The notes under the pieces are model-generated. The model was not told the origin of the DNA, searched no databases, and worked only from the letters and a program-made list of their open reading frames with translations. Made by a program: the position numbers and the translations under genes. A stretch of DNA of 64,000 nucleotides from Bdellovibrionales bacterium (GTDB taxonomy: Bacteria > Bdellovibrionota > Bdellovibrionia > Bdellovibrionales > JAGQZY01): contig JAYUQP010000022.1 in assembly GCA_043757265.1 (NCBI GenBank), positions 8,683 to 72,682 of the forward strand, given 5' to 3'. How positions within the stretch are numbered: the stretch's first letter is position 1; each line of letters begins with the position of its first letter. Shown here piece after piece: positions 1-55,604 of the stretch.

Positions 1-804
1 GATGGTACTGTTCACTCGAATATCAATATTTTTGTAATCCTCTGCTAGCTTGAAAAAATTCCTTGCGTTCTTTTCGACAACATTCCACTTTGAAGGAAAC
101 CGAATATATTCATTTAATCCTCGCAGACCATCAATACTCAGCCAAAGATAAATCTTTTTGTATGAGCGCCATGAATCGAGAATCTTTTCCGCAGGCCAGA
201 CCGTGACATTCGTATAGTATGTTAATTCAATATCAGAGGTCTTTCTCTGATTTAGAAATTTTAATATTTCAAGGTGAACTTTTGACAAGAACGGTTCTCC
301 GCCCACGAATTTGACTTCTGACAACATTGGTAGGCTCTGGAAAAGTTCAATAGAGTCAGTCAGACTCATCGTCTCTTTAACCTGATATGATTTGTTTAAC
401 TTTCTAAATTCGTTCTGAATGGCTGTACTTGATTGGGGGTCACACATTAGACACCGGAGATTACACTGATCTCCTAAAAAAAATTCTAACGATTCAATAT
501 CGTTAACCTTAACTATTTCAGAAGGCAATTCAGGTGGAGCATTCTTCAAATTAGAAACTGTTCGAAGACTTGGAAGGCTTACCGATTCTAATGTTTCACA
601 CTTTACACAACCTGCAATCTTTTTGCCTTCGAAAGAGTCCCGGCGCAGCTTTACTAATTTTTGATCGTTTAAACTATTAGTAAATGAGACTGTATCACTA
701 AGATTTATGAGCGTTATAGGCTCATAAGCGGTAAAGTTGCAACAAGGTACTAATTCTTTACCCGGACGGATGCATGCGTGCTTCCAAAAGTTTGAACATC
801 TCAT
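1..804 (-). CDS. radical SAM enzyme, twitch/SPASM-like family; C-terminus runs off the window start
   Basis: Not in the ORF track because it is open at the window edge. Hand translation of the reverse strand from ATG at 804 gives MRCSNFWKHACIRPGKELVPCCNF... and later LGDQCNLRCLMC, a CxxxCxxC radical-SAM cluster motif. The frame stays open to base 1. Confidence 0.7.
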   Translation of the reverse strand, partial: MRCSNFWKHACIRPGKELVPCCNFTAYEPITLINLSDTVSFTNSLNDQKLVKLRRDSFEGKKIAGCVKCETLESVSLPSLRTVSNLKNAPPELPSEIVKVNDIESLEFFLGDQCNLRCLMCDPQSSTAIQNEFRKLNKSYQVKETMSLTDSIELFQSLPMLSEVKFVGGEPFLSKVHLEILKFLNQRKTSDIELTYYTNVTVWPAEKILDSWRSYKKIYLWLSIDGLRGLNEYIRFPSKWNVVEKNARNFFKLAEDYKNIDIRVNSTI

Positions 805-3525: not shown

Positions 3526-4090
3526 TGAGTGAGGCGGTAGGCACTTGGATATCGTTCACAAAAAATTTTAAAATAAAAAAGGCTTCAGTTTTTTTGCAGT
3601 AAATGCCGGCATAGATTAAACGCAGCTTAAAACTTTGGTAGTCGCAAACCCCAACCGATTTTCGCTCGTTGCTATATAATAAGACTCCCTTTTTCCACAA
3701 CATTTCATTTTGTATCGCAGCAAGCTCCTGCGGCCGGTATCTCGCGGGACACGACACATTTTGAGTAATACCTCCGCCATAAGGAGCTGGGTGATCCTTA
3801 TACAGGCCCACCAATTGCTCAAACTTTTGTGTCCACAGGCGACTGGCTTCTTTATCGTCTGTGGAAGTCCTTTCCATGTGAGCAGACCCATCAAGATTCA
3901 CTAAAGAAAAACGCGTCGTTTTTTGAGTTCTTTCTTCGCGAACAATTTCCATTTTGTCGAGGAACGCACTATTAAGAACTTGTTTCGAATTTGAAGAATC
4001 TTTTTTACAAGATATAATGAGTGTGAAGAAGGCGAGTAGAATGAACTGCCTCAACTTATAAACCCGAATTATTTTGAAAAAATTGCTCAA
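3473..4090 (-). CDS. lipoprotein, hypothetical
   Basis: 205 aa with lipobox-like FFTLIIS/CKKD. Overlaps the upstream gene by 35 nt on the same strand, consistent with an operon. Confidence 0.5.
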   Translation of the reverse strand: MSNFFKIIRVYKLRQFILLAFFTLIISCKKDSSNSKQVLNSAFLDKMEIVREERTQKTTRFSLVNLDGSAHMERTSTDDKEASRLWTQKFEQLVGLYKDHPAPYGGGITQNVSCPARYRPQELAAIQNEMLWKKGVLLYSNERKSVGVCDYQSFKLRLIYAGIYCKKTEAFFILKFFVNDIQVPTASLIKMYEEIVCKTETSQTQ

Positions 4091-5090
4091 GATTGACCTC
4101 CCTCACATTGAGAATTTTATACCCTAGATCCAAAATCGGAAAAGACATCACCTCTTTCCCATTGCGGGCGATACGCTTGATTTTATTTTTTGTCGTCGTG
4201 TCCGTAAAGAGCACATTTCCGTCACTTAAAACTTCTAACCCCCCGCAAACTTCCGAGGAAAAATTTTTTTTTGGGTTTGCTTGGTATCGCCACACTGTTC
4301 TTAAGCTTTGCGGATCTAATTCAACTAACGCCGAAAAAGATTCATTCCGGTCCTTTATTTGATTTACATACAGAGCTATATTTCCATTCTTCAAAACCTG
4401 AGCATCATGGTTAAAAGCAATTGTTTTCCCGTATTTGGGAAAATACCGTCCGGTCCACAGAATGTTTTGTAAATTCTTGTCTAAAATAAAAAAATTATCG
4501 AGACCTCCTGCATGCACGATAATATTCCCTGTCTGAAAGGCAGAGTTCTTTTTAGCAAATGCATTTTCTGGAATTTCATAGGCTGAATTTGCATGCGAAA
4601 ATTCGTATTTCACATTGGGGTAGAAGTCGTTCTCCCATGTCAGGGCAAAGCCATCGGTGATGGGTGGTTTCATTTTTCGTTTTATCTCTGTTATTTTTTC
4701 AAAAAAATCAAAGCTTGAGACTATTTTTCCATCGATACCAATTTTTACCACCAAATCAAAACGAGTCATTTTACCTTTGTAATTGTGCACCGTACTTGCA
4801 AGGGCTAAAAAGGTTCCGTCAGAAAGTTGGTTCAATGTATGGTGGAAGTGGCCTTTGATCCGCCACCGCTCATTGAACTGCGCGTCTTTTAAAAAGAGCT
4901 CCCGCGTCTTACGATCACGTCCTACCCAACTACCATCTTTTAGGAAGAGACATTGCCTGCCGTCGTACTGCCGAATGATTTTACCGCCGTAGTCGTAGAT
5001 GAGACATTCGGTGACAAGAAACTTGTTACCTGTTTTGCAGCCAGTGAGAGATACAAGGCAGGCTAGGAAAACAAGAATTGGAAGGCTCAT
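4056..5090 (-). CDS. lipoprotein, arylsulfotransferase (ASST)-like beta-propeller protein
   Basis: Canonical lipobox LVSLTG/CK. The motifs 'HHTLNQLSDGTFL', 'FSHANSAYEI', 'NHDAQVLKNGNIALYVN' and 'LEVLSDGNVLFTD' resemble the repeated HHD..NGN pattern of ASST-family propellers. Confidence 0.5.
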   Translation of the reverse strand: MSLPILVFLACLVSLTGCKTGNKFLVTECLIYDYGGKIIRQYDGRQCLFLKDGSWVGRDRKTRELFLKDAQFNERWRIKGHFHHTLNQLSDGTFLALASTVHNYKGKMTRFDLVVKIGIDGKIVSSFDFFEKITEIKRKMKPPITDGFALTWENDFYPNVKYEFSHANSAYEIPENAFAKKNSAFQTGNIIVHAGGLDNFFILDKNLQNILWTGRYFPKYGKTIAFNHDAQVLKNGNIALYVNQIKDRNESFSALVELDPQSLRTVWRYQANPKKNFSSEVCGGLEVLSDGNVLFTDTTTKNKIKRIARNGKEVMSFPILDLGYKILNVREVNLEQFFQNNSGL

Positions 5091-6508: not shown

Positions 6509-8965
6509 ATGAGAGTTTTCTTTATCTTCGTATCCATTCTGATTATCTCTAAAAATACACTTGGCAAATCACCGTCGGACGCGAAGCTCGATTGGCTTGT
6601 TAAAAGCTTCAGCGCCGATCATGTTGCAAGAATCGATAAAGTTCAAAGTCCGTTTGCAAAGATTCCAAACACTTACTTAGACAAAAAAAAATGCTTGTTT
6701 GATGAGGCTGTTGCCCTGGAAATTGAGCAAAGACTTATACACTCGTGGGCTGCGTCTTGGAAAGATAAAAATATTGCGGCTTTTGGCTCTCTGTTGGGAG
6801 AAAACAGCCTCATAACAGATTGGAAAATTAAAAAAGCGAAGAGCGTTTCTCCACTCTACGACTCAACTAGCTGGACCGTGGGAGCTAAAGTCTCAACTCT
6901 GGCACCTGTCACCTCATTTTTAAAAGAATTCTTCACGATCGAGTCCGTACAGCTTGATTTTGTCGACATGGAAATTCCTGTAAGTTCACGCACGAAAAAT
7001 GGGACCAATTTCGCCAAAGCAAAGCTGCTTGTGCGTTTTGATATTCGCGGAATTGCAATGGACCAAAGCCGTAGAAACGATACAGGAACCTTTTTAGTAA
7101 ATATTTTTCGTAATAGTACGGAATGGAAAATTCAAGAGATTGAAGTCACTGCGGGTCAAACGATTGCTGCAAACAGAAAACTTTTTGAGGAAAATACGCT
7201 CAATGCAAAGCTGGATTCTATCCCTACACTTGTGAGAACGGAGGCCATTCGGCGGGGAGGATTTGCTCTCTCAGTCGCAGACTTCAATAACGATTTGATC
7301 GTTGATCTATTTGTTGGAACTGAAAAAAGCAGTTATTTATTAAAAGGTCGTGCCGATGGCACTTTTGCCCTTGATACTGATAACGATTTTTCTACAGAAA
7401 AATCTGTTAAAACTGCGATGTTTACCGACTTGGATAACGACGGGTGGCAAGATCTTGTGCTTGTTCATTTCGTCTACGATAAATTAAACACAATCTCACT
7501 CTACCGGAACACAAACGGACATTTTGTTAAATCAAAAAATAATCCCGAAAAGAATCCTCCCGACTACCCAATGCCTGCAGCCATTGGAGATTTTGATGCG
7601 GATGGTTTTATCGACATGTATGTGGGATTTCCAGGTGTAAAAGACTTCACAAATCTTGATTTTAAGTACAGTGCCAAGGCGACAATACCAACTACAAAGA
7701 GCCCTGAAGGGATTTATTTCAACAACAAACGTGGCGAGTTTTTACCCGCGGTTTGGGATTTTAAGAAAAAAACCAACGACGCAAGACTCAGCTCGCAAGA
7801 GGCTCGCGCAGCAGTCTTTCCGCATTCCGCTATTGCGGTCGATTATGACAACGATGGGCACCAAGACATCATAGTAATGGATGATCGCGGAGGTATAAGT
7901 CCAGTTTTTAAGAATATCGGAAATGGAAAATTTGAACAGGTTGCTGAGAAAATTGGGGTTTCCAACCATGGGTATGGAATGGGCGTAGCTGTAGCTGACT
8001 ACAACAACGACGGCGCACAAGACATAATAATGACAAACGTCGACTTTACCGCCGCTCATCGACTTTATAATAGCTGTCGGCAAAATCATGATATCGATGC
8101 CGCCGTCAATTTTAGTCAAGGACTCACAATCTACAAAAACACGGGCAAAGGACAATTTGTTAACGACACCCGCGCTGCGAATCTTTCATGGATTGGAGAA
8201 GGCGCCGGCGGCGCCGAATTTATTGATTTCGACAATGACGGTTGGCAGGATATCTACGTCGTCAACGGTCTGTGGTCAGGGACTACCCCAACTCAAGACC
8301 TTTCAAGCTATTTTGTTAGGGCGGTATTCACAACCATGGCTTGGGACCGCCCCGATCTAGATTATGGGAGATCGCATTTTATGAGCATTCTCTCGGATCA
8401 TAATGGTCCCCTCGACAAAAGTGGAAATGCAGTCGTCCCAATGCGCTTATCCATGGGTGGATTTCAAAGAAACCGGTTATTTCACAACAACCGGGATGGT
8501 ACGTTTTCTGAGATTGGATATATAGCTGGGGTTGACTCGTTGGCCGACGGCTACGTTGTTGCCAAAGCAGACCTGAACAAAGATGGATTTATGGACCTTA
8601 TTTTGAGAAATGCCGACCCAGGTACTAAAGACTACTTGTTTTCACCAGTGCAACTGTTTTTGAATAAAGGTGTTTCGTCGAAAAAAAGTATATTGATCAC
8701 ATTGCAAGGCCGAAGATCAAACCGTGACGGCATTGCTTCAAAAATCATCGCAAAAATTAAAGGGCAAAAGCAAAGCTACGAAGCCATAGGGAACAACGGC
8801 GCAGCTCAGAGCGAAAAAACCATCCACGTGGGACTTGGCGACGCAAAAAAAGCAGAAACATTAGAAATACATTGGCCTTCTGGAGAAAAAACTTTAATGA
8901 ATAATGTTCCCGCTGGAACTATAACGATCAAGGAGCCCACATCACAGCAAGTGAGTGGACTCTAG
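6509..8965 (+). CDS. CRTAC1-family protein (FG-GAP/VCBS repeats plus C-terminal ASPIC/UnbV domain)
   Basis: 818 aa with a signal peptide. Repeated Ca-binding FG-GAP cores are present: DLDNDGWQDL, DFDADGFIDMY, DYDNDGHQDII, DYNNDGAQDII, DFDNDGWQDIYVVNG and DLNKDGFMDLILRN. The C-terminus 'SNRDGIASKI...IHVGLGDAKKAETLEIHWPSGEKT' is typical of ASPIC/UnbV. Confidence 0.85.
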   Translation: MRVFFIFVSILIISKNTLGKSPSDAKLDWLVKSFSADHVARIDKVQSPFAKIPNTYLDKKKCLFDEAVALEIEQRLIHSWAASWKDKNIAAFGSLLGENSLITDWKIKKAKSVSPLYDSTSWTVGAKVSTLAPVTSFLKEFFTIESVQLDFVDMEIPVSSRTKNGTNFAKAKLLVRFDIRGIAMDQSRRNDTGTFLVNIFRNSTEWKIQEIEVTAGQTIAANRKLFEENTLNAKLDSIPTLVRTEAIRRGGFALSVADFNNDLIVDLFVGTEKSSYLLKGRADGTFALDTDNDFSTEKSVKTAMFTDLDNDGWQDLVLVHFVYDKLNTISLYRNTNGHFVKSKNNPEKNPPDYPMPAAIGDFDADGFIDMYVGFPGVKDFTNLDFKYSAKATIPTTKSPEGIYFNNKRGEFLPAVWDFKKKTNDARLSSQEARAAVFPHSAIAVDYDNDGHQDIIVMDDRGGISPVFKNIGNGKFEQVAEKIGVSNHGYGMGVAVADYNNDGAQDIIMTNVDFTAAHRLYNSCRQNHDIDAAVNFSQGLTIYKNTGKGQFVNDTRAANLSWIGEGAGGAEFIDFDNDGWQDIYVVNGLWSGTTPTQDLSSYFVRAVFTTMAWDRPDLDYGRSHFMSILSDHNGPLDKSGNAVVPMRLSMGGFQRNRLFHNNRDGTFSEIGYIAGVDSLADGYVVAKADLNKDGFMDLILRNADPGTKDYLFSPVQLFLNKGVSSKKSILITLQGRRSNRDGIASKIIAKIKGQKQSYEAIGNNGAAQSEKTIHVGLGDAKKAETLEIHWPSGEKTLMNNVPAGTITIKEPTSQQVSGL

Positions 8966-8977
8966 TTCCTTTTCATT

Positions 8978-9709
8978 ATGGACTCCTGTAATTATTGGCT
9001 TCATCATAGGGATGAGAGCGAAGAAGCTCAGGATTTTATTTCTTTTGTTGTGCCTAGTGATTCTAACGGAGTTTTTATGAACGAAAGTTCTCGTTTTGAA
9101 TTTAACCTCGATTATATATCTGATGTTTACGGTCCAGACTTACTTGTAAGGACGTATTTAGAGCACGAAGCCTTGCGGAGTATCCTTAAGGGTCTACCTG
9201 AAAATCTGAATAACACGGCCGAGCTCGGAGCGGGTTACGGACGCATGACTCTTGTACTCAAAGAATTCTCGCAGAATGTTTTTGCCTATGAACGGGAGAT
9301 GCAATTGGTCAAAATTGGCACGAGGCTTTCTCCTCAACTCCATTTTGTTCAAGTAGAAAGCCTCTCCAAACTGCCCGCAAAAACAGACTTTTTCGATTTG
9401 CTTATGACCTTTACGTGTCTTCAGCATCATTCCAATGAGGAGCTCGATCCAGTTCTTATCGAAGCCACTCGAGTTTTAAAACCTCATGGATATCTTTTAT
9501 TGTGCGAGGAGACAGACGGCTTTTTTAAGGATAATTTCAAACCTGGCGAGTTTGGAACAATAAGCCGATCGCCTGCCGAATATGCTTCGTTTTTATCCGA
9601 ATTCGAATTCTTAAAAAGCGTATCGCGCCCTCACGAGCCCTCTTACCCACGAAAAAACGTTGGTGCCTTTATGCTATTTAGGAAACGGGCCGCCTCTCTT
9701 GACTATTAA
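8978..9709 (+). CDS. class I SAM-dependent methyltransferase
   Basis: 243 aa with motif I 'ELGAGYGRMT' and post-I/II spacing typical of the Methyltransf_11/25 fold ('LLMTFTCLQH', 'LKPHGYLLL'). Confidence 0.75.
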   Translation: MDSCNYWLHHRDESEEAQDFISFVVPSDSNGVFMNESSRFEFNLDYISDVYGPDLLVRTYLEHEALRSILKGLPENLNNTAELGAGYGRMTLVLKEFSQNVFAYEREMQLVKIGTRLSPQLHFVQVESLSKLPAKTDFFDLLMTFTCLQHHSNEELDPVLIEATRVLKPHGYLLLCEETDGFFKDNFKPGEFGTISRSPAEYASFLSEFEFLKSVSRPHEPSYPRKNVGAFMLFRKRAASLDY

Positions 9710-9733
9710 TCGCCACACGCATATTTAACTTTA

Positions 9734-10465
9734 ATGGCGCCTACGTTGAGTACTGCTCGAAAAATCAAAATTTTAGTCTTCAGCCATCATTTATTTCTGA
9801 TTATGGGCCTTTTGTATCTTGATGTGACTCACATGGCAGTGGCTTTGGTGAGCTACCTTCTTTTTGGAAAAATTGGGGGAGAGATTGCTTTGCACAGGTA
9901 TTTTGCGCATAAATCTTTTAAGACCACATATTTAATGGATAGAGGCTTTGCTGTCCTTTCCATCGGGGCGGGTTTGGGCTCTCCACTTTCTTGGGCAGCC
10001 ACGCACCGCTTGCACCATCGTCACGAAGACCAGGACGGTGATCCGCATAGCCCCCGGTTTCAGCCACCTCTCCACGTATGGATGACTTATTGGAAACCAT
10101 TTATCGTTCCACAGAAATTGATCACAGATCTTTCAAGAGATTCCTTCCACCGCTTCATTCATAAGTATTATTTTCATCTCCATGTCGCAATGTGGACGCC
10201 TGCCATCATTTTGTGCCCCACTTACTTTCCTTTTATTTTTTCTTTTCCGTGCATTTATGGTTTTCATCTTGCGGGAGCTGTCAATGTGCTAGGCCATGCA
10301 CCAGCAGTCAGAAATATCTACTGGCTGAATTTTTTCGGCCTGGGCGACGCTCTCCACCTCAACCATCATATTCACCCAAACTCCCATTCCACCGCCGGGG
10401 CAACTTTATTGGAGTTTGATCTTTCTGGCTGGATCATCCGCACCTTTTGCCGGGTAAACAAATAA
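9734..10465 (+). CDS. membrane fatty-acid (delta-9 acyl-CoA/acyl-lipid type) desaturase, paralog A
   Basis: Three His boxes: HRYFAH, HRLHHRH(EDQDGDPHSP) and HLNHHIH. Hydrophobic segments flank box 1. Confidence 0.8.
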   Translation: MAPTLSTARKIKILVFSHHLFLIMGLLYLDVTHMAVALVSYLLFGKIGGEIALHRYFAHKSFKTTYLMDRGFAVLSIGAGLGSPLSWAATHRLHHRHEDQDGDPHSPRFQPPLHVWMTYWKPFIVPQKLITDLSRDSFHRFIHKYYFHLHVAMWTPAIILCPTYFPFIFSFPCIYGFHLAGAVNVLGHAPAVRNIYWLNFFGLGDALHLNHHIHPNSHSTAGATLLEFDLSGWIIRTFCRVNK

Positions 10466-12136
10466 ATTACACATGCTCATTTCGTCAGTGGTGTCCTCAC
10501 CCCAAGCCACAGCCCGGTTCGGATCTGGGTTGGATTTATTGGATGAGGAGTTGTCGAAAGTATTCTCACAAATGATTTTTTGACCTTTTTTTACCAAAAA
10601 AACATTTCGTCTTTCATAAGTAAACTGAAATTCAAAAAGATAAGGATCTACTTCAAACAGAGTTTCGGTTTTATCCTTCGACGTCTCAAGCAAAATTCGC
10701 GAACGCTTCCCTCGCAAATGCATATGAGTATTCATAGCCATAACATACGCGTCATAGGGAATGCTCTTTTCGATCCTGTTTACGAAATTTACGGCGTGCG
10801 GTGGTATCATCACTTTTTCATCCAATAAGGTCCATTCCTCCCGGACGTGCAAAGGTTTCTTCGAAAAGGTATAAAGTCCGATACGGGTCTTATCGTCGAT
10901 TGTCGCTTCCCCGTTCGCAGCATAGTGCAGAGTTAACGCAAGTTTAGACTTTTTTGGAATAAGCGCACCCACATTGGGTGGAAAGAATTGTGCACGCGCC
11001 CCGGGAGCCCATCCAAACCGTGAGATAAAGTTGACTGGAAATTTTTCTGGTCGCAACTCGTAGCTATCTTTTAAAACATGTACGACCGCGTGGTGAACGA
11101 CCTTCGGTAAAGTCTTAAACTCAAAACCCCGAATCCAAACATCTTCGGTAAATGGATTTTCGATAATAAAATGTTGATACTCCATTGGCCCGTCAGCGAG
11201 AATTTTTACCGGCCGCGGAATTTTGATGACTTTACTTGGTTCGCCCACGGACCAAGAATCATAAGCTACGGTAGGACTCGGTTGAAGCATCCCGCTTTGT
11301 TTGGGAACAGATTTTAGCCACGGAAGGATCAATTTTTTTTCCGCGTCGGTCAGAGAAAAATCGTCAAGCCACGGACCTCCCGTTTTTACATTCCACGGGG
11401 GCATTATATTTTTTTCGATCACATATTTGATGGTTTTTGCACGCGCTTTTACGCTATCGTAGGTTGATAAATCCATCACCCCGGTTTGCGAAGTGTGGCA
11501 GGGCAAACACTTCCTTTGAAAAATGGGCGAGATATGCTCCTCGTAATTGATGGTAGCAATGTTCGCCTCCTCTTTTTTCGGGTATGCTATTATACAGCCA
11601 TGGGCCGTAGTCTCGGAATATCGTTGGATTTTTCCACCCGCTATCTCTTGCAATTTTTGCTCTAAAAAGTCGTTTGAAGCTTGGTACTTTTGTACGCCGA
11701 TTTCAAACTGATCGTCGACAGCCCCGCGATACAAAATTTTGCCATGCTTATTGAAGACCACTGCTTCGGTCGTCGTTTTTAAGCCAAGACTTTTTGCCAC
11801 TTCGAGTTTTGGGTCAGTCAGATAGGCTCCACCAAATCCGTACTTCGTTTTGTCAGCAATTGCATTTTGTATTGAGTTTATTTGTCCCACATAAAGGTAA
11901 ACAAAAGAGAATCCAAGTGAACTGAATTTAGTCTCCATTTTTTTTAACCGCGGGCCCAACTTTTCGGATATGGGACAGCCACTTTCTCTAGCCAGAAGAA
12001 CGAGCCCCTGCTCTCCGACAAGGCGGTTGAGCGGCATCCTGGATCCGGAGATGGTCAAAGCATTTATTTCGGAAAGCTCAGAAGATCCTTGAGTCATATT
12101 AAGCGAGTAAAAAAGCAAATATAAAGAAAAAATCAT
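10406..12136 (-). CDS. secreted fusion: redoxin/thioredoxin-like domain, CxxCH heme motif and Cu-monooxygenase-like C-terminal domain
   Basis: 576 aa. The N-terminal AhpC/TSA-like block has 'ESGCPIS' (CxxS). The mid region 'ISPIFQRKCLPCHTSQTG...NIMPPW' resembles Planctomycete-type cytochrome c. The C-terminus has 'HHAVVHV' and 'MNTHMHLRGK', His/Met patterns like the type II Cu ascorbate-dependent monooxygenase fold. Confidence 0.55.
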   Translation of the reverse strand: MIFSLYLLFYSLNMTQGSSELSEINALTISGSRMPLNRLVGEQGLVLLARESGCPISEKLGPRLKKMETKFSSLGFSFVYLYVGQINSIQNAIADKTKYGFGGAYLTDPKLEVAKSLGLKTTTEAVVFNKHGKILYRGAVDDQFEIGVQKYQASNDFLEQKLQEIAGGKIQRYSETTAHGCIIAYPKKEEANIATINYEEHISPIFQRKCLPCHTSQTGVMDLSTYDSVKARAKTIKYVIEKNIMPPWNVKTGGPWLDDFSLTDAEKKLILPWLKSVPKQSGMLQPSPTVAYDSWSVGEPSKVIKIPRPVKILADGPMEYQHFIIENPFTEDVWIRGFEFKTLPKVVHHAVVHVLKDSYELRPEKFPVNFISRFGWAPGARAQFFPPNVGALIPKKSKLALTLHYAANGEATIDDKTRIGLYTFSKKPLHVREEWTLLDEKVMIPPHAVNFVNRIEKSIPYDAYVMAMNTHMHLRGKRSRILLETSKDKTETLFEVDPYLFEFQFTYERRNVFLVKKGQKIICENTFDNSSSNKSNPDPNRAVAWGEDTTDEMSMCNLFVYPAKGADDPARKIKLQ

Positions 12137-12160
12137 CGAAGCATCACCTTGCTATAATTA

Positions 12161-13057
12161 TCAAAGATTAAATTCGTCCAATGCTTTCCGATCCACGCTG
12201 CTGTCGTTCAATTTGATTTCCGAAAAAGGCATGGTCGCAATGTCGGCGTGAGAAAGCTTGCGCAATGGCTGCACCGGAACCATTTCCTTTAAATCGTCTT
12301 GACCGTTCACGCAGACCCGAATCTGAAATCGTGGATCTTTTCCAAAATTAATGGCGTAGTGTTCATATCCTGCATTGATAAAATATATGCCACCATCGGC
12401 TGGAAGATGAAATTCCTCCCAACCCTCTGGGCCCTTCACTCCAATTCGAGCATTAGTATTTGTAAATACTGGAATCTGCAGCCGCGTGATGTATTCGGCA
12501 CCAACATCAAAATGGGGAGATAAATACTCTTCGGGATACAGAACAACCAAAGCTGAACGACAAGATTCGCTTTTAAACATCTGCAAGATTTCCTGAACAT
12601 ACCCTTTGCAGTACTCCGTCATTTGCGAGTAATTTCTTTCGTCGTAAAACGGATGATACATTTTGTAGGCGGTGTTAGCCATACCGTGCAAGCGTTGAAG
12701 CGGGGTCAAATCCGAAACCTTATAAGGAAGATTTTGCGCGTATATTTTTGCCTCTTTACTCAGTTCTTGCAGCCCAATAACACTGTACTTTCGATACACT
12801 TCTTCGTAATTTTTTACGAACAGCTCGCCCTTCGTATTTCGTAAATTGTAGCTGTGTTCGGTGGAGGCTGGGTCTAGCGAAAAATTTTGCGCGTCAATCT
12901 TGCGCTGATGGGTCACTAAAAGCTCGGCAACTTGTGATTGCACCCGGTCAAGGTCTACCTTGGCTGCTATTCGACCTACAAGCGGAAGTTCTCTTTTGCT
13001 CTTTCGCTGCTTTATAATTTCTGAGTAATCAACACCAATTTTGTGTGTACTTTTCAT
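12161..13057 (-). CDS. Asp/Asn beta-hydroxylase-like (LpxO/OlsC-type cupin) oxygenase, paralog 1
   Basis: 298 aa. 'LSPHFDVGAEYITRLQIPVFT...GGIYFINAGYEHYAINFGKDPRFQIRV' gives an HxD...H pattern and a context like the Asp_Arg_Hydrox family. Confidence 0.55.
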   Translation of the reverse strand: MKSTHKIGVDYSEIIKQRKSKRELPLVGRIAAKVDLDRVQSQVAELLVTHQRKIDAQNFSLDPASTEHSYNLRNTKGELFVKNYEEVYRKYSVIGLQELSKEAKIYAQNLPYKVSDLTPLQRLHGMANTAYKMYHPFYDERNYSQMTEYCKGYVQEILQMFKSESCRSALVVLYPEEYLSPHFDVGAEYITRLQIPVFTNTNARIGVKGPEGWEEFHLPADGGIYFINAGYEHYAINFGKDPRFQIRVCVNGQDDLKEMVPVQPLRKLSHADIATMPFSEIKLNDSSVDRKALDEFNL

Positions 13058-14060
13058 ATTCTTTCCGAAGAATTGCTTTTGCCTCAGGGTCGATTGGCTT
13101 GCATGGCCGATCGAGAAAAAACTGTCCGTCTGGTGAGCTTATAATAACATACTGCCAAACCCCCCTTTCAAAAATCATTTTTTCGTAAGGTACGAGGCTT
13201 TTTCGAAAATGCGCTCCAATACCGGGCGCGTACTGATTTTTTCTGAAAAGATGACGCCTTTCGCCAATGCGACGAACCGTCCACTCTAGCGTGCGCAAAT
13301 CTCCCTCATTTACAGTCAGATAGATCCGTTCCACATTCTGTCTTTCGCACCAGTCAAAAAGAGCCGGTTCAAAAAACCGATCAATGGTTGAGTGTGGAAC
13401 GCCCTTCTTTAGGTGAAGCCGTCCATAAATTTTGGCGACTTTACACCCATTTTCGATCGTTAAAATAACCGACGCCATGGCTCCGATTTTGCAGGTTTCA
13501 TCAAGCCAAAGGAAAAGTTCGCCCTGCTTGCCGTCGTAACAATTCAACCTGATTTTTTGAGCGTCACGGTTATTAGGAGGCGGATCGTCTCGGAAGTAGT
13601 CTTGAAGAATCGGCAAGAACGTTGGCCTGTAACGAACCACAGCACCTTGCTTGAAACCCAAAAATAAAGGCCACCGTTTTGTCATTTGAAATTCAACGAT
13701 AGCTTCGGCAAGAGCTAAACCTTCAAAAGTGTATTTTGCTAAGGTCTGCCACCATGGTTCGGTCGGCAGCTGATTTTCGCGGTAAAACTGAACAATCAAA
13801 TTGTGAAATTCGTAAATACCTTTTTCGAAGTCCGATAAATCCACAAATTCTAATGGTTGCATAGATTCCACATGGACAGGTAAAATTGAATTAAGTTGAG
13901 TAAACGTTTTCGTTGAAGAAAATGGTTTATATGCAAGGATGCCATACGATTCCGGAAAGTTTTCTTTTACTTTTAAAAAGTAATCCTCTGTTATGACAGC
14001 AACACCGCTGTAATGCCCTGCAAGATGGGTTAGATAAAACTTTCTTTCTGTCACGACCAT
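13029..14060 (-). CDS. hypothetical protein, first gene of the minus-strand operon 14060->10406
   Basis: The track ORF starts at 14174 but would overlap the divergent desaturase by 97 nt. The internal ATG at 14060 (MVVTERKFYL...) removes the overlap. No motif was recognised, and a GNAT/Fem-like fold is only a guess. Confidence 0.45.
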   Translation of the reverse strand: MVVTERKFYLTHLAGHYSGVAVITEDYFLKVKENFPESYGILAYKPFSSTKTFTQLNSILPVHVESMQPLEFVDLSDFEKGIYEFHNLIVQFYRENQLPTEPWWQTLAKYTFEGLALAEAIVEFQMTKRWPLFLGFKQGAVVRYRPTFLPILQDYFRDDPPPNNRDAQKIRLNCYDGKQGELFLWLDETCKIGAMASVILTIENGCKVAKIYGRLHLKKGVPHSTIDRFFEPALFDWCERQNVERIYLTVNEGDLRTLEWTVRRIGERRHLFRKNQYAPGIGAHFRKSLVPYEKMIFERGVWQYVIISSPDGQFFLDRPCKPIDPEAKAILRKEYEKYTQNWC

Positions 14061-14077
14061 GGGATAACACACTGAAT

Positions 14078-14893
14078 ATGAAGAAGACAGTGCGTTCCGA
14101 ACAAAACTTGTTGTTTGCAGCCCAAACTGTCGCTCATCTTTCAATCGTGCCAATGTTCTTCTACGCAGGCGCAAAAGATTACATGTTTTCGGCGATTATC
14201 TACTCATTGTTTTTTTGTTTTGGAATTAGCATGACATACCACCGACTGGTCTCGCACAAATCATGGACCCCTCCCAAGTTTTTCGAGCTTGTTGGCTCTT
14301 GCTTAGGTGCGCTGTGCCTGCAAGGCAGTCCATTGGCCTGGGCCGCCATGCACAGGGAACATCATCGATTTTCTGATTCAAGCAAGGACCCCCATCCACC
14401 GCATGGAAACGTTTTGCGTGCTCATTTTTTAAGCATGTACCACGAGCCTAAACTCCGATACATCTTGGATTACAGATTTGATTTGTTCCAGCAATGGTTA
14501 CACAGGAGATATTGGACTGTGAATTTGTTTTACGCTGGCTCTCTTTTTATCATAATTGGCCCTTTCGCAGTGGTTTCGCTATACCTTTTTCCCGCCGTTC
14601 TCAGCTGGCATGGCGCAAGCTTTGTTAATACTTTCTGTCACCTGCTAGGGTACCGAAATTTTCGCACGAAGGACAACAGCACCAATTTGTGGTGGGTGGC
14701 TTTGTTTAACTTTGGGGAAGGCTGGCATAACAACCATCACTCCGATCCTCAGAACCCGTACTTTGGACGAAAGTATTGGGAAATCGACCCATCTGGAATT
14801 CTCATTCGTTTATTCAATAGGGATGAGAAAAAGCAAAAAACCCGAGAGCCTACAGCTATTTTAAAGCTCGAGTCTCAATCTTATAAGAGCTAG
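14078..14893 (+). CDS. membrane fatty-acid (delta-9 acyl-CoA type) desaturase, paralog B
   Basis: His boxes HRLVSHKSW, WAAMHREHHRFSDSSKDPHPP and GEGWHNNHHSDP closely follow the stearoyl-CoA desaturase family consensus. Confidence 0.85.
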   Translation: MKKTVRSEQNLLFAAQTVAHLSIVPMFFYAGAKDYMFSAIIYSLFFCFGISMTYHRLVSHKSWTPPKFFELVGSCLGALCLQGSPLAWAAMHREHHRFSDSSKDPHPPHGNVLRAHFLSMYHEPKLRYILDYRFDLFQQWLHRRYWTVNLFYAGSLFIIIGPFAVVSLYLFPAVLSWHGASFVNTFCHLLGYRNFRTKDNSTNLWWVALFNFGEGWHNNHHSDPQNPYFGRKYWEIDPSGILIRLFNRDEKKQKTREPTAILKLESQSYKS

Positions 14894-15242
14894 TAAGCGC
14901 TCTTCGGTTAAAAATCTTTAGAAGATCTTTTTGTAAAGTCCAATATGCAAATATGATAAGCGAACTAAATTCATACGTGTAAACAGCTTTATCACTCAAG
15001 TAAGTGTATTTTATATTCTTAATCCAGCCTTTTTTTACGAACTTTTTATTGAGGTCAACAAGACGATTCATATCCATCAGACTGTGTTCTAAGGTTGCCG
15101 CCTGACTGGGGCCCACCGATGGTGGATAATGCCAAACGAATTGAACAGGATAATTAGACGGTGATTCTTTCTGATTCAAAAGCGCAAAAGAAGGTGTAAA
15201 AAACAACAGTCCCTGAATCAACCTTCTACGCTTTGATTGCAT
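14856..15242 (-). CDS. small hypothetical protein
   Basis: 128-aa ORF with a hydrophobic N-terminus (LIQGLLFFTPSFALL). It overlaps the 3' end of desaturase B by 38 nt (convergent) and starts 21 nt from the divergent cupin gene. Confidence 0.35.
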   Translation of the reverse strand: MQSKRRRLIQGLLFFTPSFALLNQKESPSNYPVQFVWHYPPSVGPSQAATLEHSLMDMNRLVDLNKKFVKKGWIKNIKYTYLSDKAVYTYEFSSLIIFAYWTLQKDLLKIFNRRALTSSYKIETRALK

Positions 15243-15263
15243 GGTTAATTATAGGCGGTGAAA

Positions 15264-15923
15264 ATGGGAAACTCCAAGAAAAATCAAATAGACTTGAGAT
15301 CAATTCCAATCTACCGTAGAAATGTGGATCTGTTTGAGACTATAAGCCCGCCTAACAAAGCCGAATTCTTAGTTCAGCTAAAACACAACTCCATCATACC
15401 TTGGTCTCTAGCAGAAAATTTACTAGACCTGTCCCTGTCTGCAAGTGTGTCGTATTCTTTTGGAGTTGCGAAAGGCATAGACATCGGATTACATCCAATT
15501 TACTCGGAAATAGCCAACCAATTTAACCTCAAAACCCGTATTTTTGTGATCCACATGCCAGCTGAATTTCATGCTTTACCGATTCATATTGATGGACATG
15601 CTGATAAGAATAATGCTGCAAGTATCATCTGGCCTTTGTACGGATGCGACGAACGGTCTCCCACAAAATGGTTTGAGACAAAAACCCATGAATTTGAGTT
15701 TGTAAAAAACAATTATTTTCTAAAAAATGCAGAGGGGCTTAAAGTTTGCCATAGTCAATCGATGCACTCTTCGGAAAAATCACCCTACCTTTTCAGAAGC
15801 AATATTCTTCACTGCGGCTATAATTTTTCGGGAAAAGAAAAAATCATCGTTAAATGGGAAATGAATTCACCCAATTGGACTGAAGCAAATGAATTTTTTA
15901 GAACCTTGGATCTGATTGCTTAA
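15264..15923 (+). CDS. cupin / Asp-Asn beta-hydroxylase-like oxygenase, paralog 2 (divergent)
   Basis: The ATG at 15264 is 2 codons inside the GTG-started track ORF. 'LPIHIDGHADKNNAASIIWPLYGC...YLFRSNILHCGYNFSG' gives an HxD...H pattern in the same context as paralog 1. Confidence 0.4.
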   Translation: MGNSKKNQIDLRSIPIYRRNVDLFETISPPNKAEFLVQLKHNSIIPWSLAENLLDLSLSASVSYSFGVAKGIDIGLHPIYSEIANQFNLKTRIFVIHMPAEFHALPIHIDGHADKNNAASIIWPLYGCDERSPTKWFETKTHEFEFVKNNYFLKNAEGLKVCHSQSMHSSEKSPYLFRSNILHCGYNFSGKEKIIVKWEMNSPNWTEANEFFRTLDLIA

Positions 15924-22805: not shown

Positions 22806-25154
22806 TTACTTTTTGTAATTAAACCAAAGATCGAAAATCAGATCCAACGAACCGTCCTGGTACTGAATGACCGATTTATAAACGGTTTCATTGCCATGAG
22901 CATCACGCTCATAAAAGCCCGGATCGTAATTTAAATCGATATTCTTCACACTCATTTGATCAAGGGACACGAGTTCATTCCGAGTTCCGATACCATCAAA
23001 GTTTTTATCTTTCCACAGTCGTAGCGACTTAAAAACGGAATCCTTACTATTGATAAGCCCATCTCCATTGCTATCAAATTTGGCAAGAGCTAAGAAGCCA
23101 TTAGCCGAAAAGTCTTTGTCTGGACCGCGAGTGTTGTCACCGAACATTTCGTCAACACCTTCAACGCGTCCTTTTTTATTCGGCTTTACAAGGAACATAT
23201 ACTGATCCGTGTTCAACCAACTGATCTGGTGCCGAGCATTCTTTCGTGGCTCCGCATTAAATCCTAGGATGTTAAATTGAATGCCATCGGCAATCGAGGA
23301 CAATTCTACGTAGCGTGCCACATCGTGCTTCGGATTCACGTGGACGATCAATGGCGATGCCTTCATATCGCATTTTTTCTTATCCACCTTCGAATTAAAA
23401 TCAGGATTATCGTCGATGATCACCTGAATTTTTTCCGACAACCTAGCAAAGCGTACATCGCGAGATCCATACATGATAAAGCTGATCTCTTCCTTGCCGC
23501 GCTTGTCTGAGTCCTTAGCAAAGAGGCGAACGTTTTCGTACTCGCTACTTTTAACCGGCAAGTCTCCACCCACCACTGGCGAGAACAGTGTCACGTAAAG
23601 TTCCGACTTTTTATGGCCAGAAATATCACAATCGGAAAGATCTAAGCGTTTTTTATTAATCACATCGTTTTTAATTTTATCGGTGTTGCGTGACTCACAA
23701 ATTGGTACCATGGAAACAACTTTTTTCTTTTCCATTTTGCAAACGACTTTTTTGTGCTCGTGTTTGCAACTCGCTTTGTGCGTGTGCGAGTCATTATCAT
23801 CATCGTCGTCATCGCCCGATCTTATCCAGCCAGTGCGTTGCGCCTTACAAACTTCAACCTCTTGGACAGTTTCTACGCGTTTAACAACTCGCATAACAAG
23901 CTCTAGACGGTCATTTAGTTTAAAGCGACCGCTGCTTGTGCGAATTCTTGAACAAACTCTGTCGACTGGAACATTCCAAGGTGCGCACTTTTTAAATTGC
24001 GCTTCCTTCTGCAGACCTGGAATCAAATTCATTTCGCAATCGTCAGGTGGACACTTTTGACCAGGAACACCGTCATCATCTGTTCCATCACCATTATTCG
24101 AGCGTCCTGGATTCGAAGAATCATTTCCATCCCTATCATTTCCATGACCATTGTTGCCCTTTTTGCATTCGCCACCGGTTGAACCACCCGACGTCGATCC
24201 ACCAGTTGAACCTCCAGTAGTCGACCCACCAGTGGTAGACCCACCTGAAGTGGAGCCGCCAGTATCGCTTCCTGTGGTTGATCCACCAGAGGTCGTTCCA
24301 CCTGATATTGTACCACCAGTATCACTGCCAGAAGTTGCTCCCGCAGTTGTGCTACCGCCAGTATCGCTTCCGGTAGTCGATCCACCTGACGTAGACCCAC
24401 CTGATATTGTACCACCAGTATCACTGCCAGAGGTTGCTCCCGCAGTTGTGCTACCGCCAGTATCGCTTCCCGTAGTCGACCCACCAGAGGTCGTTCCGCC
24501 AGTGTCACTGCCGGAAGTTGCTCCCGCAGTTGTGCTTCCACCAGTTTCGCTTCCTGTGGTTGATCCACCAGAAGTCGTTCCGCCAGTGTCACTGCCGGAA
24601 GTCGCTCCCGCAGTTGTGCTTCCACCAGTTTCGCTTCCCGTAGTCGACCCACCAGAAGTCGTTCCACCAGTGTCACTGCCGGAAGTTGCTCCCGCAGTTG
24701 TGCTTCCACCAGTTTCGCTTCCTGTGGTTGATCCACCTGTCGTGGTTGCTCCAGTGGTGCTTCCACCCGACCCGCCGCCAATAACTAAACAGTAGTCGCC
24801 GTTTGCATTGGGCACATAACCAACTGAGATCAAATAGGCAAGGTCGGTGTCATCAACAAAAATTTCGCGTATGCAATTGGATACAGTGCTATCCCCATCA
24901 TCTGTATCTATAGGTGGCAAACAGTACTCGTTGTTCGGAGACACTGTGTATCCTTGACGATCTAAAAGAGGAATGTCTTCTTCGTCCACAATTGCGAGTG
25001 GCAAACATTGTTGCTTGACGCTCGCGAGTATTACTGTGTTCGAAAGCAACTCTCTTTTAGCTGTGGCATCAATTTCCGAACCGCCGTTAGAACATGCGGA
25101 AACAGCAAACAGACAAAGGCCTAAAAACTTCTTGTTTATATTGAGTGCATCCAT
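22806..25154 (-). CDS. large surface/secreted lipoprotein with a Gly/Ser/Thr tandem-repeat region and an EF-hand-like Ca-binding C-terminal domain
   Basis: The ATG at 25154 is preceded by AAAGAAAGAGGTG and gives MDALNINKKFLGLCLFAVSA/CSNGG (lipobox). There is a ~200-aa GGSTTGSxTGGSTTAGATSGSDTGG repeat and a poly-Asp stretch (SGDDDDDDNDSH). The C-terminus carries 'FDSNGDGLINSKDSVFKSLRLWKDKNFDGIGTRNEL'. Confidence 0.8.
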   Translation of the reverse strand: MDALNINKKFLGLCLFAVSACSNGGSEIDATAKRELLSNTVILASVKQQCLPLAIVDEEDIPLLDRQGYTVSPNNEYCLPPIDTDDGDSTVSNCIREIFVDDTDLAYLISVGYVPNANGDYCLVIGGGSGGSTTGATTTGGSTTGSETGGSTTAGATSGSDTGGTTSGGSTTGSETGGSTTAGATSGSDTGGTTSGGSTTGSETGGSTTAGATSGSDTGGTTSGGSTTGSDTGGSTTAGATSGSDTGGTISGGSTSGGSTTGSDTGGSTTAGATSGSDTGGTISGGTTSGGSTTGSDTGGSTSGGSTTGGSTTGGSTGGSTSGGSTGGECKKGNNGHGNDRDGNDSSNPGRSNNGDGTDDDGVPGQKCPPDDCEMNLIPGLQKEAQFKKCAPWNVPVDRVCSRIRTSSGRFKLNDRLELVMRVVKRVETVQEVEVCKAQRTGWIRSGDDDDDDNDSHTHKASCKHEHKKVVCKMEKKKVVSMVPICESRNTDKIKNDVINKKRLDLSDCDISGHKKSELYVTLFSPVVGGDLPVKSSEYENVRLFAKDSDKRGKEEISFIMYGSRDVRFARLSEKIQVIIDDNPDFNSKVDKKKCDMKASPLIVHVNPKHDVARYVELSSIADGIQFNILGFNAEPRKNARHQISWLNTDQYMFLVKPNKKGRVEGVDEMFGDNTRGPDKDFSANGFLALAKFDSNGDGLINSKDSVFKSLRLWKDKNFDGIGTRNELVSLDQMSVKNIDLNYDPGFYERDAHGNETVYKSVIQYQDGSLDLIFDLWFNYKK
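24171..24780 (-). repeat. in-frame 84-bp (28-aa) tandem repeat tract, about 5 full units plus degenerate ends
   Basis: The unit GGSTTGS(E/D)TGGSTTAGATSGSDTGGT(T/I)S is repeated. Two units are separated by 15-bp GGSTS/GGTTS inserts. The DNA copies are near-identical with synonymous differences. Confidence 0.9.
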
Positions 25155-25621
25155 ACACACCTCTTTCTTTAAGATAGTATGGAAGAAAATGTTTGAATAC
25201 TCCATGGACATTCAAAATAAATCACAAAGTGTTCTGTATGAATGCGAAATAAGATCCATAATGACTGCCCGAAAGTTTTTCGTTTTTCCAACAATTATTT
25301 CCGTCAAAAAGTTACGCATTAAACGGCAATATTTTGATTGGGCAATTATTGATTTTTTACCGACTTTTTTTTGGTTTGATTTTCTCGGAAGCTCTTCGGA
25401 CAGGTAAAATGAAAAAAGATAGTTCGCTAAAAAACGACATTTTTTAATCTGTTCGCTAGGTCAGATCCGATAGTAAATGCAAACGAAAAAAACCAATGTC
25501 TCGTTTTGAAACACCAAATTTCTTACTTTTTTAACTTCCAATTAAGGATACAATTATTTCGTTATTTCTACTAAGGTCTTGGAATGAGATTTCCGATAAG
25601 AAATTATCAGGGGGCTGATGT

Positions 25622-27175
25622 ATGTACGCTGGTTTTAAGGTCTTCATAGTTGGAATCTTTATCACGCAGAATATTCTCGCCGAAGATGTTCAATATTTAA
25701 CTAACACCGAGCATTTTGCAAAATGCTACGCAAAACTCACCGACCACCCAGCCGATCCAACTTCCAATCTTTACATGCAAGTCCTGCAAGGCACTTTGAC
25801 TCCAGTGGACGCCTGCATGAGCGTTTTCGATAAAGCCATGTTCAGCCCTTCAAGCCGACGACTTAGGGATGCTAACGATCCTATCGCCAAAGCCATTGTA
25901 CAAAACTTTCATCGCTTTCATCTCAGCTGGTTAACGATTCCATTTAGTCAAAACATCGACGCTTCAATCTTTTCTCTGCTTGATAACGATGAGCCGGCCC
26001 TTTACATCACTGAAGCCTTATTTATGAATCGACATTACAAATACATAGTTACAGCTAACCAATCGCTTCGTGGTGTGCGCGAAACCTCGAATCCAGACAC
26101 TTACATGCTAAATAATATCAACTTCACCAACCGGCAACTTGTCGTCGGTCCTATGAAAACCACCGTTACCGAGCCTGACCCTTTGAAAAATTACTATGAA
26201 ATCAAAGGGACACGGGTTTCCGTTGGTCCTCTTATTGGCGTGCAAGATACACCGTCGCTCGTCTATCAGCTTCCACTCTCCCATCGCTCTGACATACCAT
26301 TGACTGAAGCAACGCTGCCTTCACGCCGACTTCCTGCCACCACGTACGATATCAGTTCACATCCAGGTGGCGGAGTCATCGGCAGTAGCACAACGTTTCT
26401 CAATGCCCGCGAAAGTGTATCAATGCCAGATGGTGGCTTGTATGTTCATCGACGGCTTTCTAATAACTTCTTTTACGACTTTATGTGCTCTAAACTGCCG
26501 ACATTTAAAGACTCCGATCCACAAGTGGTTGCAGAACTCAGTAAGTTTGCTAAATCTGATATCCCTTTTCGGAAGAGCGCAACCTGTGTTGCCTGTCACC
26601 TAACACTCGATAACTTTGCTCATACCGGCCGTAATATCATCTCAACAAGAGGTCTCAATCCTACATTTCGTCGACAACTAGCGGATGCTGGCCTTGTCGC
26701 TCCAACAAATTTGGAGATGGTTCACCACTATCCACCTGTGAAGGCGGCACTGGTTGACCCAATCGATAAAGATACCCTCTACCACCGTCGACAACCAGAC
26801 GGCCGCCTCATTTATCGCAATTACGCTGGCAATCTTGTAAATCAAGATGTGCGCGGCTTATCTGCTATGGGCGCAGCTGTTGCCGCGCAAGACGACATTT
26901 ATATGTGCGCCGCCAAGCGATACTACAATTTCCTAACCGGGGTAAGTATCCCACTCGATCCAATCCCTTTAGATACAATTACTAAAAAGCCTAAAGACCC
27001 ATCCAATAATTTTATATTTTATCACCGCCAAAAAATTGTGAGCTTAGGCGCTACGCTCAAAAAAGGGACTGACGTTGAGGGCAAGCCGTGGAATTTACGC
27101 AATCTAGTCCGTGAAATTATTAAATCTAACGCCTTTCGAGCTAAAAACCCGGCCGTTGTAGGAGATTCCTTATGA
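25622..27175 (+). CDS. secreted CxxCH-motif protein (DUF1588-like partner of the following gene)
   Basis: 517 aa with signal-like N-terminus MYAGFKVFIVGIFITQNILA/E. 'SATCVACHLTLDNFAHTGRN' parallels 'SACISCHSYINPYGFAIEAYD' in the canonical DUF1588-type protein at 55605. Confidence 0.55.
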   Translation: MYAGFKVFIVGIFITQNILAEDVQYLTNTEHFAKCYAKLTDHPADPTSNLYMQVLQGTLTPVDACMSVFDKAMFSPSSRRLRDANDPIAKAIVQNFHRFHLSWLTIPFSQNIDASIFSLLDNDEPALYITEALFMNRHYKYIVTANQSLRGVRETSNPDTYMLNNINFTNRQLVVGPMKTTVTEPDPLKNYYEIKGTRVSVGPLIGVQDTPSLVYQLPLSHRSDIPLTEATLPSRRLPATTYDISSHPGGGVIGSSTTFLNARESVSMPDGGLYVHRRLSNNFFYDFMCSKLPTFKDSDPQVVAELSKFAKSDIPFRKSATCVACHLTLDNFAHTGRNIISTRGLNPTFRRQLADAGLVAPTNLEMVHHYPPVKAALVDPIDKDTLYHRRQPDGRLIYRNYAGNLVNQDVRGLSAMGAAVAAQDDIYMCAAKRYYNFLTGVSIPLDPIPLDTITKKPKDPSNNFIFYHRQKIVSLGATLKKGTDVEGKPWNLRNLVREIIKSNAFRAKNPAVVGDSL

Positions 27176-55426: not shown

Positions 55427-55604
55427 CGAATAAATTCTCCGCAGCTAATGCTTCAAAATGAGAAATGGTTTTCACATCTAATACTTTATCTCTCCCATCT
55501 CATTTTGATGAACTTATTAAGTTAAATCAATTTTTTGCATGATTTTTGATAAACTAAAGCCGAAGAAGCCATGTGTGAAAACCACCTGGGGACGTCGGGG
55601 GATC

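Follow-up and report, generated by a model that had tools for sequence, protein, structure and literature searches.

A predicted exported bacterial relative of the copper monooxygenases PHM and DBH, apparently fused to heme c and thiol-redox domains

PHM, DBH and TBM are, in the prevailing view, eukaryotic enzymes, and how electrons arrive at the CuH site, how they cross to CuM and what can substitute for ascorbate are long-running questions in the PHM field. Here we analyze a bacterial protein with a copper core of this type, encoded by a minus-strand gene within a 64,000-nt stretch of Bdellovibrionales DNA (hereafter the window; assembly GCA_043757265.1, contig JAYUQP010000022.1, positions 8,683 to 72,682). 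The described PHM structures (rat PAM catalytic core; 1PHM, 1OPM, 1SDW, 3MLL) share with this 576-aa protein the two beta-sandwich domains, the CuH set of HH plus H and the CuM set of HxH plus M, at a sequence identity of 15–17%; PHM, however, is eukaryotic, uses ascorbate and carries neither a heme nor a thioredoxin-like domain, whereas the window protein is bacterial, predicted to be exported and fused to both. DBH/tyramine beta-monooxygenase (human DBH, 4ZEL) agrees with it in catalytic core and ligand sets, is the best match of the copper domains in sequence-profile comparison and is likewise multidomain with an extra N-terminal module, but its accessory parts are DOMON and dimerisation domains and it uses ascorbate, where the window protein has a PRX-like thioredoxin fold and a predicted covalent heme c domain. 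PHM is called widespread among eukaryotes in a 2022 paper on double jelly-roll folds (PMC8812541). According to a term search of a 2025 specialist review, “prokaryot” is absent, the lone occurrence of “bacteria” is unrelated to PHM, and the relatives of PHM that are named are DBM, TBM and the plant BURP cyclases (PMC12164859).

The open reading frame (ORF; coordinates of all features are collected in Table 1) is preceded by a Shine-Dalgarno sequence, AAGGTGA, 7 nt upstream of its ATG, and its product is identical to public protein P0001 (NCBI and Logan assemblies). No NCBIfam model matches the protein, and no second copy of the gene was found within the window. An earlier note on this DNA had quoted a set of short motifs as the basis for a single secreted polypeptide with redoxin, CxxCH heme and Cu-monooxygenase-like parts. 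All of them lie in the intact ORF: ESGCPIS at residues 51–57 (containing C54), ISPIFQRKCLPCHTSQTG at 202–219 (containing C210xxC213H214), NIMPPW at 243–248, HHAVVHV at 348–354 and MNTHMHLRGK at 468–477. Judged by their conservation in 121 homologues, mostly ~30% identical and aligned with MAFFT, these motifs are far above chance level, and the three modules are further backed by sequence profiles, by Foldseek and by an AlphaFold2 model for which 86 homologues were aligned (mean predicted local distance difference test score (pLDDT) 91.8, predicted template modelling score 0.89). Of the 267 relatives with a length of 480 aa or more, 250 jointly retain C54 and C181, CxxCH and M245, and all six copper ligands; the three cofactor sites are co-conserved across the family. 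From these combined observations we infer that the protein is an exported bacterial PHM/DBH relative with heme c and thiol-redox domains in the same chain.

The window protein contains a complete two-domain PHM/DBH-type core with its six copper ligands. Compared with the PDB by Foldseek, the AlphaFold2 model returned about 30 PHM entries and human DBH as its top tier (E 8e-15 to 1e-12), with template modelling (TM) scores of 0.6–0.69 relative to the target over 270–316 columns and with alignments spanning both beta-sandwich domains; the PHM-like beta-sandwich expected of the C-terminal half is thus found in the model. At the level of sequence, Pfam Cu2_monoox_C (PF03712), one of the families that had been proposed, matches residues 456–561 at 33 bits, above its cut-off of 23. 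The other, the CuH model PF01082, gives no match at E ≤1e-1 in the window protein, so the homology of the CuH domain is drawn from Foldseek and from profile-to-PDB alignment. Here the whole-family profile matched DBH at 1.6e-8 (1.6e-8 to 1.9e-9 over the profiles used) and PHM at 1.8e-5, and a profile of the C-terminal half aligned its positions 36–279 to PHM residues 35–281. This alignment sets family vvHHvlvf against PHM tVHHMLLF (H107, H108) and DBH lVHHMEVF, family elHYt against PHM QVHYG (H172) and DBH EVHYH, family pHmHlRGk against PHM RVHTHHLGK (H242, H244) and family dEMl against PHM SDEMC (M314), with the corresponding DBH residues aligning likewise. All six positions therefore fall onto PHM ligands, in agreement with the earlier reading of the HH...HxH...M pattern as the CuH and CuM ligand sets, and the His and Met residues show the conservation that this reading calls for (121 of 121 homologues, or 120 for M553). 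Six of the 267 relatives lack a copper ligand; P0237, P0241, P0243 and P0271, which are among these, were matched only to about residue 430–480, so that the region holding M553 is not covered.

The substrate side of the core departs from PHM. In the profile alignment, the PHM carboxylate anchor Arg240 has no counterpart and falls on a variable family position (Asn469 in the window protein), while PHM Tyr318, kept as Tyr by most family members, faces Asn557; the full PHM substrate anchor (Arg240, with Tyr318 and Asn316) is accordingly not present in the window protein. Two conserved elements are candidates for the substrate site, namely Arg475, which together with Gly476 follows the CuM HxH and is invariant (121 of 121 for each residue), and a family-specific DNSxxNPxNPDP loop that precedes the Met ligand and is absent from PHM. 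Since Arg240 has no counterpart, the substrate would not be a glycine-extended peptide bound in the PHM manner; anchoring may instead fall to Arg475, which shares a strand with the second CuM His and sits two residues past it.

Upstream of the copper core lies a predicted monoheme class-I cytochrome c-like domain. CxxCH and M245 are present in all 267 relatives, and Met245 is probably the distal axial heme ligand, given its position 31 residues past the CxxCH His and its invariance. A Pfam scan of the whole protein gave weak Haem_bd and Cytochrome_CBB3 matches around CxxCH. When the heme domains were excised, that of the window protein scored 24.9 for Haem_bd and 18 for Cytochrome_CBB3 (cut-off 27 for both); these two families matched 19 of 20 members and Cytochrom_C matched 11 of 20, all below gathering scores and with a best E of 7e-7. 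The PDB sequences nearest the domain are themselves c-type heme domains, those of hydrazine synthase alpha and of the monoheme cytochromes c 3CP5 and 4RLR. PSCyt1 (PF07635), which had been suggested for this region, does not match the window protein and was seen in just one of 20 family heme domains (E 0.14). A bacterial arrangement comparable in part is the Sco1/SenC-cytochrome c fusion (cytochrome domain 2L4D), whose name occurs among the weak PDB matches of the heme domain (E 2.4) and which likewise combines a thioredoxin-fold thiol/copper domain with a monoheme cytochrome c. Electrons pass between the heme and the thioredoxin-fold domain of that fusion. A monooxygenase domain is missing from it, however, and the Sco copper site is CxxxC plus His rather than a CP...GC pair.

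Export of the protein by the Sec route is likely. The N-terminal segment has a mean Kyte-Doolittle hydropathy of 2.0 over 10 residues, a comparable hydrophobic stretch occurs at the N-terminus of 110 of 115 homologues, and the AlphaFold2 model shows a helix at residues 2–15 followed by a dip in pLDDT.

Taken together, these features favor, with a little better than even confidence, a copper monooxygenase that works in the periplasm independently of ascorbate, with CuH receiving its electrons from the fused heme. The protein would be exported by Sec and its heme attached in the periplasm; its two copper sites would activate O2, and a substrate C–H bond would be hydroxylated at CuM, as in PHM and DBH. 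Because the periplasm has no ascorbate, the heme c would act in its place as a built-in one-electron donor to CuH, a path that we infer, and electron carriers of the periplasm or of the respiratory chain would re-reduce it. Of the modules, the heme and the copper core seem to be the most tightly paired, as the heme motif is never lost and some relatives apparently lack the redoxin domain. The thiol domain would then have an accessory redox role, either in handling peroxide or disulfides or in holding cofactor sites or substrate reduced. In this genome, the enzyme probably tailors a small molecule, a lipid or a peptide, with a presumably co-transcribed 2-oxoglutarate-type hydroxylase and a GNAT-like orphan as likely partners alongside the nearby desaturase-like, methyltransferase, arylsulfotransferase-like and radical-SAM genes. 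The concept has a parallel in the fungal cellobiose dehydrogenase cytochrome and LPMO, in which a heme domain is also the one-electron donor to a copper monooxygenase and replaces a small-molecule reductant; the likeness is functional only, as the folds are unrelated, the cytochrome carries heme b, the mono-copper site is a histidine brace and the partners are separate proteins.

Several observations weigh against this reading. The CuH model PF01082 is silent in the precomputed domains of 120 homologues as well as in the window protein, every cytochrome c Pfam match stays below its gathering score, and the signal peptide lacks a basic n-region. Furthermore, a wide-family neighbour analysis (913 ORFs clustered from 83 loci) showed no conserved neighbour outside the small clade of the window protein, the commonest neighbour cluster occurring in 8 of the 83 loci. 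The family gene is generally stand-alone, and gene context points to no substrate.

The same heme and copper sites could also be read in the opposite direction, with electrons flowing outward from substrate or copper through the heme to the respiratory chain. The PHM-like part would then be an oxidase, a dehydrogenase or a copper-handling module, or the protein would be mainly a periplasmic peroxidase. Cytochrome c domains fused to bacterial periplasmic dehydrogenases usually accept electrons, and the missing Arg240 anchor would be in keeping with such a role. Nevertheless, the His3 and His2Met ligand sets of a non-coupled binuclear, O2-activating site are invariant, the entire two-domain catalytic core is retained and, to our knowledge, no member of the PHM/DBH family acts as a dehydrogenase, all of which makes a function other than monooxygenation improbable.

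The N-terminal module of the putative monooxygenase is a thioredoxin-fold redoxin domain. The earlier note had proposed the Redoxin family for it, and PF08534 indeed matches residues 49–143 above its cut-off (29.6 versus 26.6 bits). Against PDB sequences, the whole-family profile was closest to 2YWI (1e-27), 2CVB (2e-26) and 3U5R (1e-25); Foldseek ranked 3U5R, 2YWI and 2CVB/2YWO directly after PHM and DBH (TM 0.72–0.76). These PRX-like proteins from Geobacillus kaustophilus (2YWI), Thermus thermophilus (2CVB/2YWO) and Sinorhizobium meliloti (3U5R) have no assigned function and share with the window protein the fold, a single Cys in a CP motif, a YRGxxDD motif and a C-terminal GC Cys, but they are stand-alone proteins of ~190 aa, whereas the window protein has this domain at the N-terminus of a predicted heme/copper enzyme. 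C54-P55 aligns with their CP(F/Y)V motif and G180-C181 with their GC. The site had been described as CxxS with the resolving Cys absent. The first half of that description holds, CxxS being the commonest family form (residue 57 is S, A, C, G, V or T across homologues, and Cys, giving CPxC, in just 19 of 121); the second is not confirmed, as the near-invariant Cys181 stands elsewhere in the sequence and is a candidate partner of Cys54. The C-terminal Cys of 2YWI has itself been treated as a resolving-Cys candidate (PMC3091736).

How far the Cys pair takes part in turnover separates two further explanations. A self-contained unit for electron delivery and oxygenation, as proposed in the earlier note, is plausible for this domain set, and in its strongest form thiol, heme and copper would make up a closed relay: the Cys54/Cys181 dithiol would store two electrons per turnover, be recharged by a DsbD/CcdA-type membrane reductase and pass its electrons singly through the heme to CuH. 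The joint conservation of Cys pair, heme motif and copper ligands in 250 of 267 relatives and the redoxin-heme-PHM order, fixed across the family, both fit such a relay. The two-electron capacity of a dithiol would equal the two-electron demand of PHM-type turnover, whose stoichiometry is established, and DsbD/ScsB-type transporters are known to keep periplasmic redoxin-like proteins reduced. Direct one-electron transfer from a thiol to a heme with no flavin or metal mediator would nonetheless be chemically unusual, and the family itself contains exceptions to the coupling: in 11 of the 267 relatives one or both Cys are gone yet the heme and copper sites are retained, and P0211, P0230, P0198, P0236 and P0246, matched only from about residue 182–195 onward, appear to have the heme and PHM parts but no redoxin domain. 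Neither the window nor related loci contain a linked DsbD/CcdA gene, and we consider the relay unlikely.

Alternatively, the redoxin domain may be a built-in maturation or protection factor, with the heme and PHM parts working as in the ascorbate-independent monooxygenase proposed above. It could resemble ResA, CcmG and TlpA and keep the apocytochrome CxxCH or the copper-site residues reduced for cofactor insertion, or it could be peroxiredoxin-like and remove H2O2 arising from uncoupled copper turnover. The family profile does match ResA (1e-13), CcmG/DsbE and TlpA (1e-5 to 1e-7), ResA follows the PRX-like entries in the Foldseek ranking (TM ~0.75), and the N-terminal and C-terminal Cys resemble a peroxidatic and resolving pair (PMC3091736). 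By far the best matches, however, are the PRX-like structural-genomics proteins of unassigned function, and the CxxC of ResA, CcmG and TlpA is missing from most members, which leaves this alternative possible but doubtful.

The bacterial family to which the window protein belongs is large, and within it this protein is divergent (Bdellovibrionales-like). Searched exhaustively with HMMER, 1.84 billion representatives of 50%-identity clusters yielded 4,100 representatives at E ≤1e-10 and 1,086 at E ≤1e-30, nearly all of the latter matched from residue ~25 to ~555 and thus with the three-module architecture; 434 word-indexed homologues of the window protein have the same architecture. Scanning one genome per species with a profile from 10 sequences showed a relative in at least 596 species genomes, mainly of Planctomycetota and Verrucomicrobiota but also of Armatimonadota, Acidobacteriota, Gemmatimonadota, Bdellovibrionota and a few Burkholderiales. 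Among the carriers of the family are cultured bacteria, namely Zavarzinella formosa DSM 19928, Singulisphaera sp. Ch08, Undibacterium sp. TJN19 and Alienimonas chondri. Identity to the window protein reaches 36% or more in only about eight relatives. Compared with family residues conserved at 85% or more, this clade has replaced Pro470, directly before the first CuM His, by Thr, Ser, Ala or Val, and it further departs at Trp503 (Phe/His), Pro497 (Asp/Asn), Pro342 (Thr) and Ala250 (Val/Met). Many Planctomycetota and Verrucomicrobiota members (P0010, P0012, P0014, P0055 and others) carry C-terminal EF-hand repeats, and some members, 900–1250 aa long, have additional N-terminal regions; neither feature occurs in the window protein.

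Database entries label these proteins “redoxin family protein”, “peroxiredoxin”, “thiol-disulfide isomerase” or “mono/diheme cytochrome c family protein”. Full-text literature searching, whose coverage excludes most subscription journals, turned up no publication that deals with a bacterial protein of the redoxin-cytochrome c-PHM type; the family is therefore present in databases and, so far as this search shows, functionally unexplored. A tentative and rather speculative view, to which we give limited credence, is that it represents a prokaryotic, ascorbate-independent form of PHM/DBH: a widespread periplasmic family of self-sufficient hydroxylases with a dithiol store and a heme c wired to CuH, possibly the stock of the eukaryotic neuropeptide and catecholamine enzymes, in which a Bdellovibrionales-type subfamily, with its changes beside the CuM His, was recruited to a tailoring pathway. 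For Planctomycetota, Verrucomicrobiota, Acidobacteriota and their relatives, the family would mean a new oxygenase chemistry in the periplasm, the labels “redoxin family protein” and “peroxiredoxin” would be corrected and, with a heme c fused upstream of the CuH/CuM core, the field would gain a model for inter-site electron transfer that is genetically tractable and carries a spectroscopic tag.

Table 1 Features of the window discussed in the text
Feature	Position in window	Strand	Basis
Three-module protein gene, complete	10406..12136	(-)	576-aa ORF, ATG start, uninterrupted; end coordinate 10406 includes stop codon
Hydrophobic segment MIFSLYLLFYSLNMTQG, aa 1-17, probable Sec signal peptide	12086..12136	(-)	Hydropathy; no lipobox Cys, weak n-region
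Thioredoxin-fold redoxin domain, PRX-like 2YWI/2CVB/3U5R type, aa ~24-185	11582..12067	(-)	Pfam, profile, Foldseek
Cys54-Pro55 (CPIS), active-site-position Cys	11972..11977	(-)	C54 in 119/121, P55 in 120/121 homologues
Gly180-Cys181, C-terminal edge of redoxin domain, candidate resolving/partner Cys	11594..11599	(-)	G180 in 120/121, C181 in 119/121
Monoheme class-I cytochrome c-like domain, aa ~196-285	11282..11551	(-)	Weak Pfam matches, PDB-sequence neighbours
C210-L-P-C213-H214, predicted covalent heme c attachment motif	11495..11509	(-)	Invariant, 121/121
M245-P-P-W248, Met245 probable distal heme ligand	11393..11404	(-)	Invariant, 121/121
PHM/DBH-like N-terminal beta-sandwich (CuH domain), aa ~295-430	10847..11254	(-)	Foldseek, profile alignment
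PHM/DBH-like C-terminal beta-sandwich (CuM domain), aa ~431-563	10448..10846	(-)	Pfam, Foldseek, profile alignment
His348-His349, equivalent to PHM H107, H108 (CuH)	11090..11095	(-)	Invariant, 121/121
His404-Tyr405; His404 equivalent to PHM H172, third CuH ligand	10922..10927	(-)	H404 invariant, 121/121
His471-Met-His473, equivalent to PHM H242, H244 (CuM)	10718..10726	(-)	Both His 121/121
Glu552-Met553; Met553 equivalent to PHM M314 (CuM)	10478..10483	(-)	M553 in 120/121
Fe(II)/2-oxoglutarate-type cupin hydroxylase-like protein, 298 aa, upstream partner	12161..13057	(-)	Weak Pfam, PDB relative
343-aa orphan, first gene of putative operon, possibly GNAT-like fold	13029..14060	(-)	Weak Foldseek
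Radical-SAM gene, cut by left edge of window	1-798	(-)	
Arylsulfotransferase-like gene	4056-5090	(-)	
Class-I methyltransferase gene	8978-9709	(+)	
Membrane fatty-acid-desaturase-family genes, 243 and 271 aa, flanking putative operon	9734-10465; 14078-14893	(+)	

The ORF list bears out the proposed gene layout, in which a 343-aa ORF, a cupin ORF and the 576-aa gene follow one another on the same strand. The first two overlap by 29 nt and a gap of 24 nt separates the cupin from the 576-aa gene, a spacing compatible with a single transcript for all three. A promoter and terminator consensus scan of positions 9600–15400 gave counts not above those of shuffled controls and lends the operon boundaries no support. 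For the cupin, Pfam Asp_Arg_Hydrox matched below its cut-off (E 1.4e-3), and among proteins of solved structure the caprazamycin beta-hydroxylase Cpz10 (7V4F, E 3.6e-5) is its best relative. A second presumed cupin (15258–15923, plus strand), which had been called its paralog, has no Pfam match, and the two show no significant BLAST similarity to each other. The 343-aa protein has neither a Pfam nor a PDB sequence match and falls in 4 clusters only among 5.8 billion; its shallow, low-confidence AlphaFold2 model (pLDDT 64.7) gave weak Foldseek matches to GNAT proteins (E ~3e-4), a lead towards a GNAT-like fold.

Conservation of this arrangement was seen in close relatives. In the best genomic relative, a Bdellovibrionales contig from a metagenome-assembled genome (L004), the homologue of the 576-aa protein is 68% identical and the same neighbours stand in the same order. 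The cupin accompanies the homologue there (75% identity) and also in L003 (55%), a more distant metagenomic contig on which homologues of further window genes occur in another order, among them the 343-aa orphan (45%), the second desaturase (44%), the arylsulfotransferase-like gene and the radical-SAM gene. The presence of these genes beside the homologue in L003 suggests a tailoring gene island shared in the window clade. Two full-length paralogues of the three-module gene lie 2–4 kb apart both in L002 (5497–7164 and 10001–11794) and in L003 (10001–11761 and 13511–15220). An oxygenase-rich island surrounds these paralogues, with TauD, a 2OG-Fe(II) oxygenase, an aldo-keto reductase, cytochrome P460 and radical SAM, and a divergently transcribed TPR-like protein of ~520 aa also stands nearby. 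Across the wide family, the recurrent neighbours, judged by eye from representative sequences, looked PSCyt/PSD-like, DUF1501-like and sulfatase-like and resembled abundant gene families of the Planctomycetes-Verrucomicrobia-Chlamydiae (PVC) type.

The two desaturase-family genes of the window are 29% identical, and their His boxes appear by eye stearoyl-CoA/DesC-like (HRxxSH, HRxHHR, GEGWHNNHH). At 10406–10465 the 3′ ends of the first of them (plus strand) and of the 576-aa gene (minus strand) overlap convergently by 60 nt, an overlap that measures 54 nt in L004. Most other large ORFs of the window (e.g. 22806–25211, 25622–28794 and 36304–38265) have no Pfam match. Elsewhere, the window encodes an 818-aa FG-GAP/ASPIC-UnbV protein (6509–8965, plus strand), an astacin-family metalloprotease (47762–49003, minus strand) and a PSD4/PSCyt3/PSD5/PSD2 protein of “planctomycete type” (55539–57362, plus strand).

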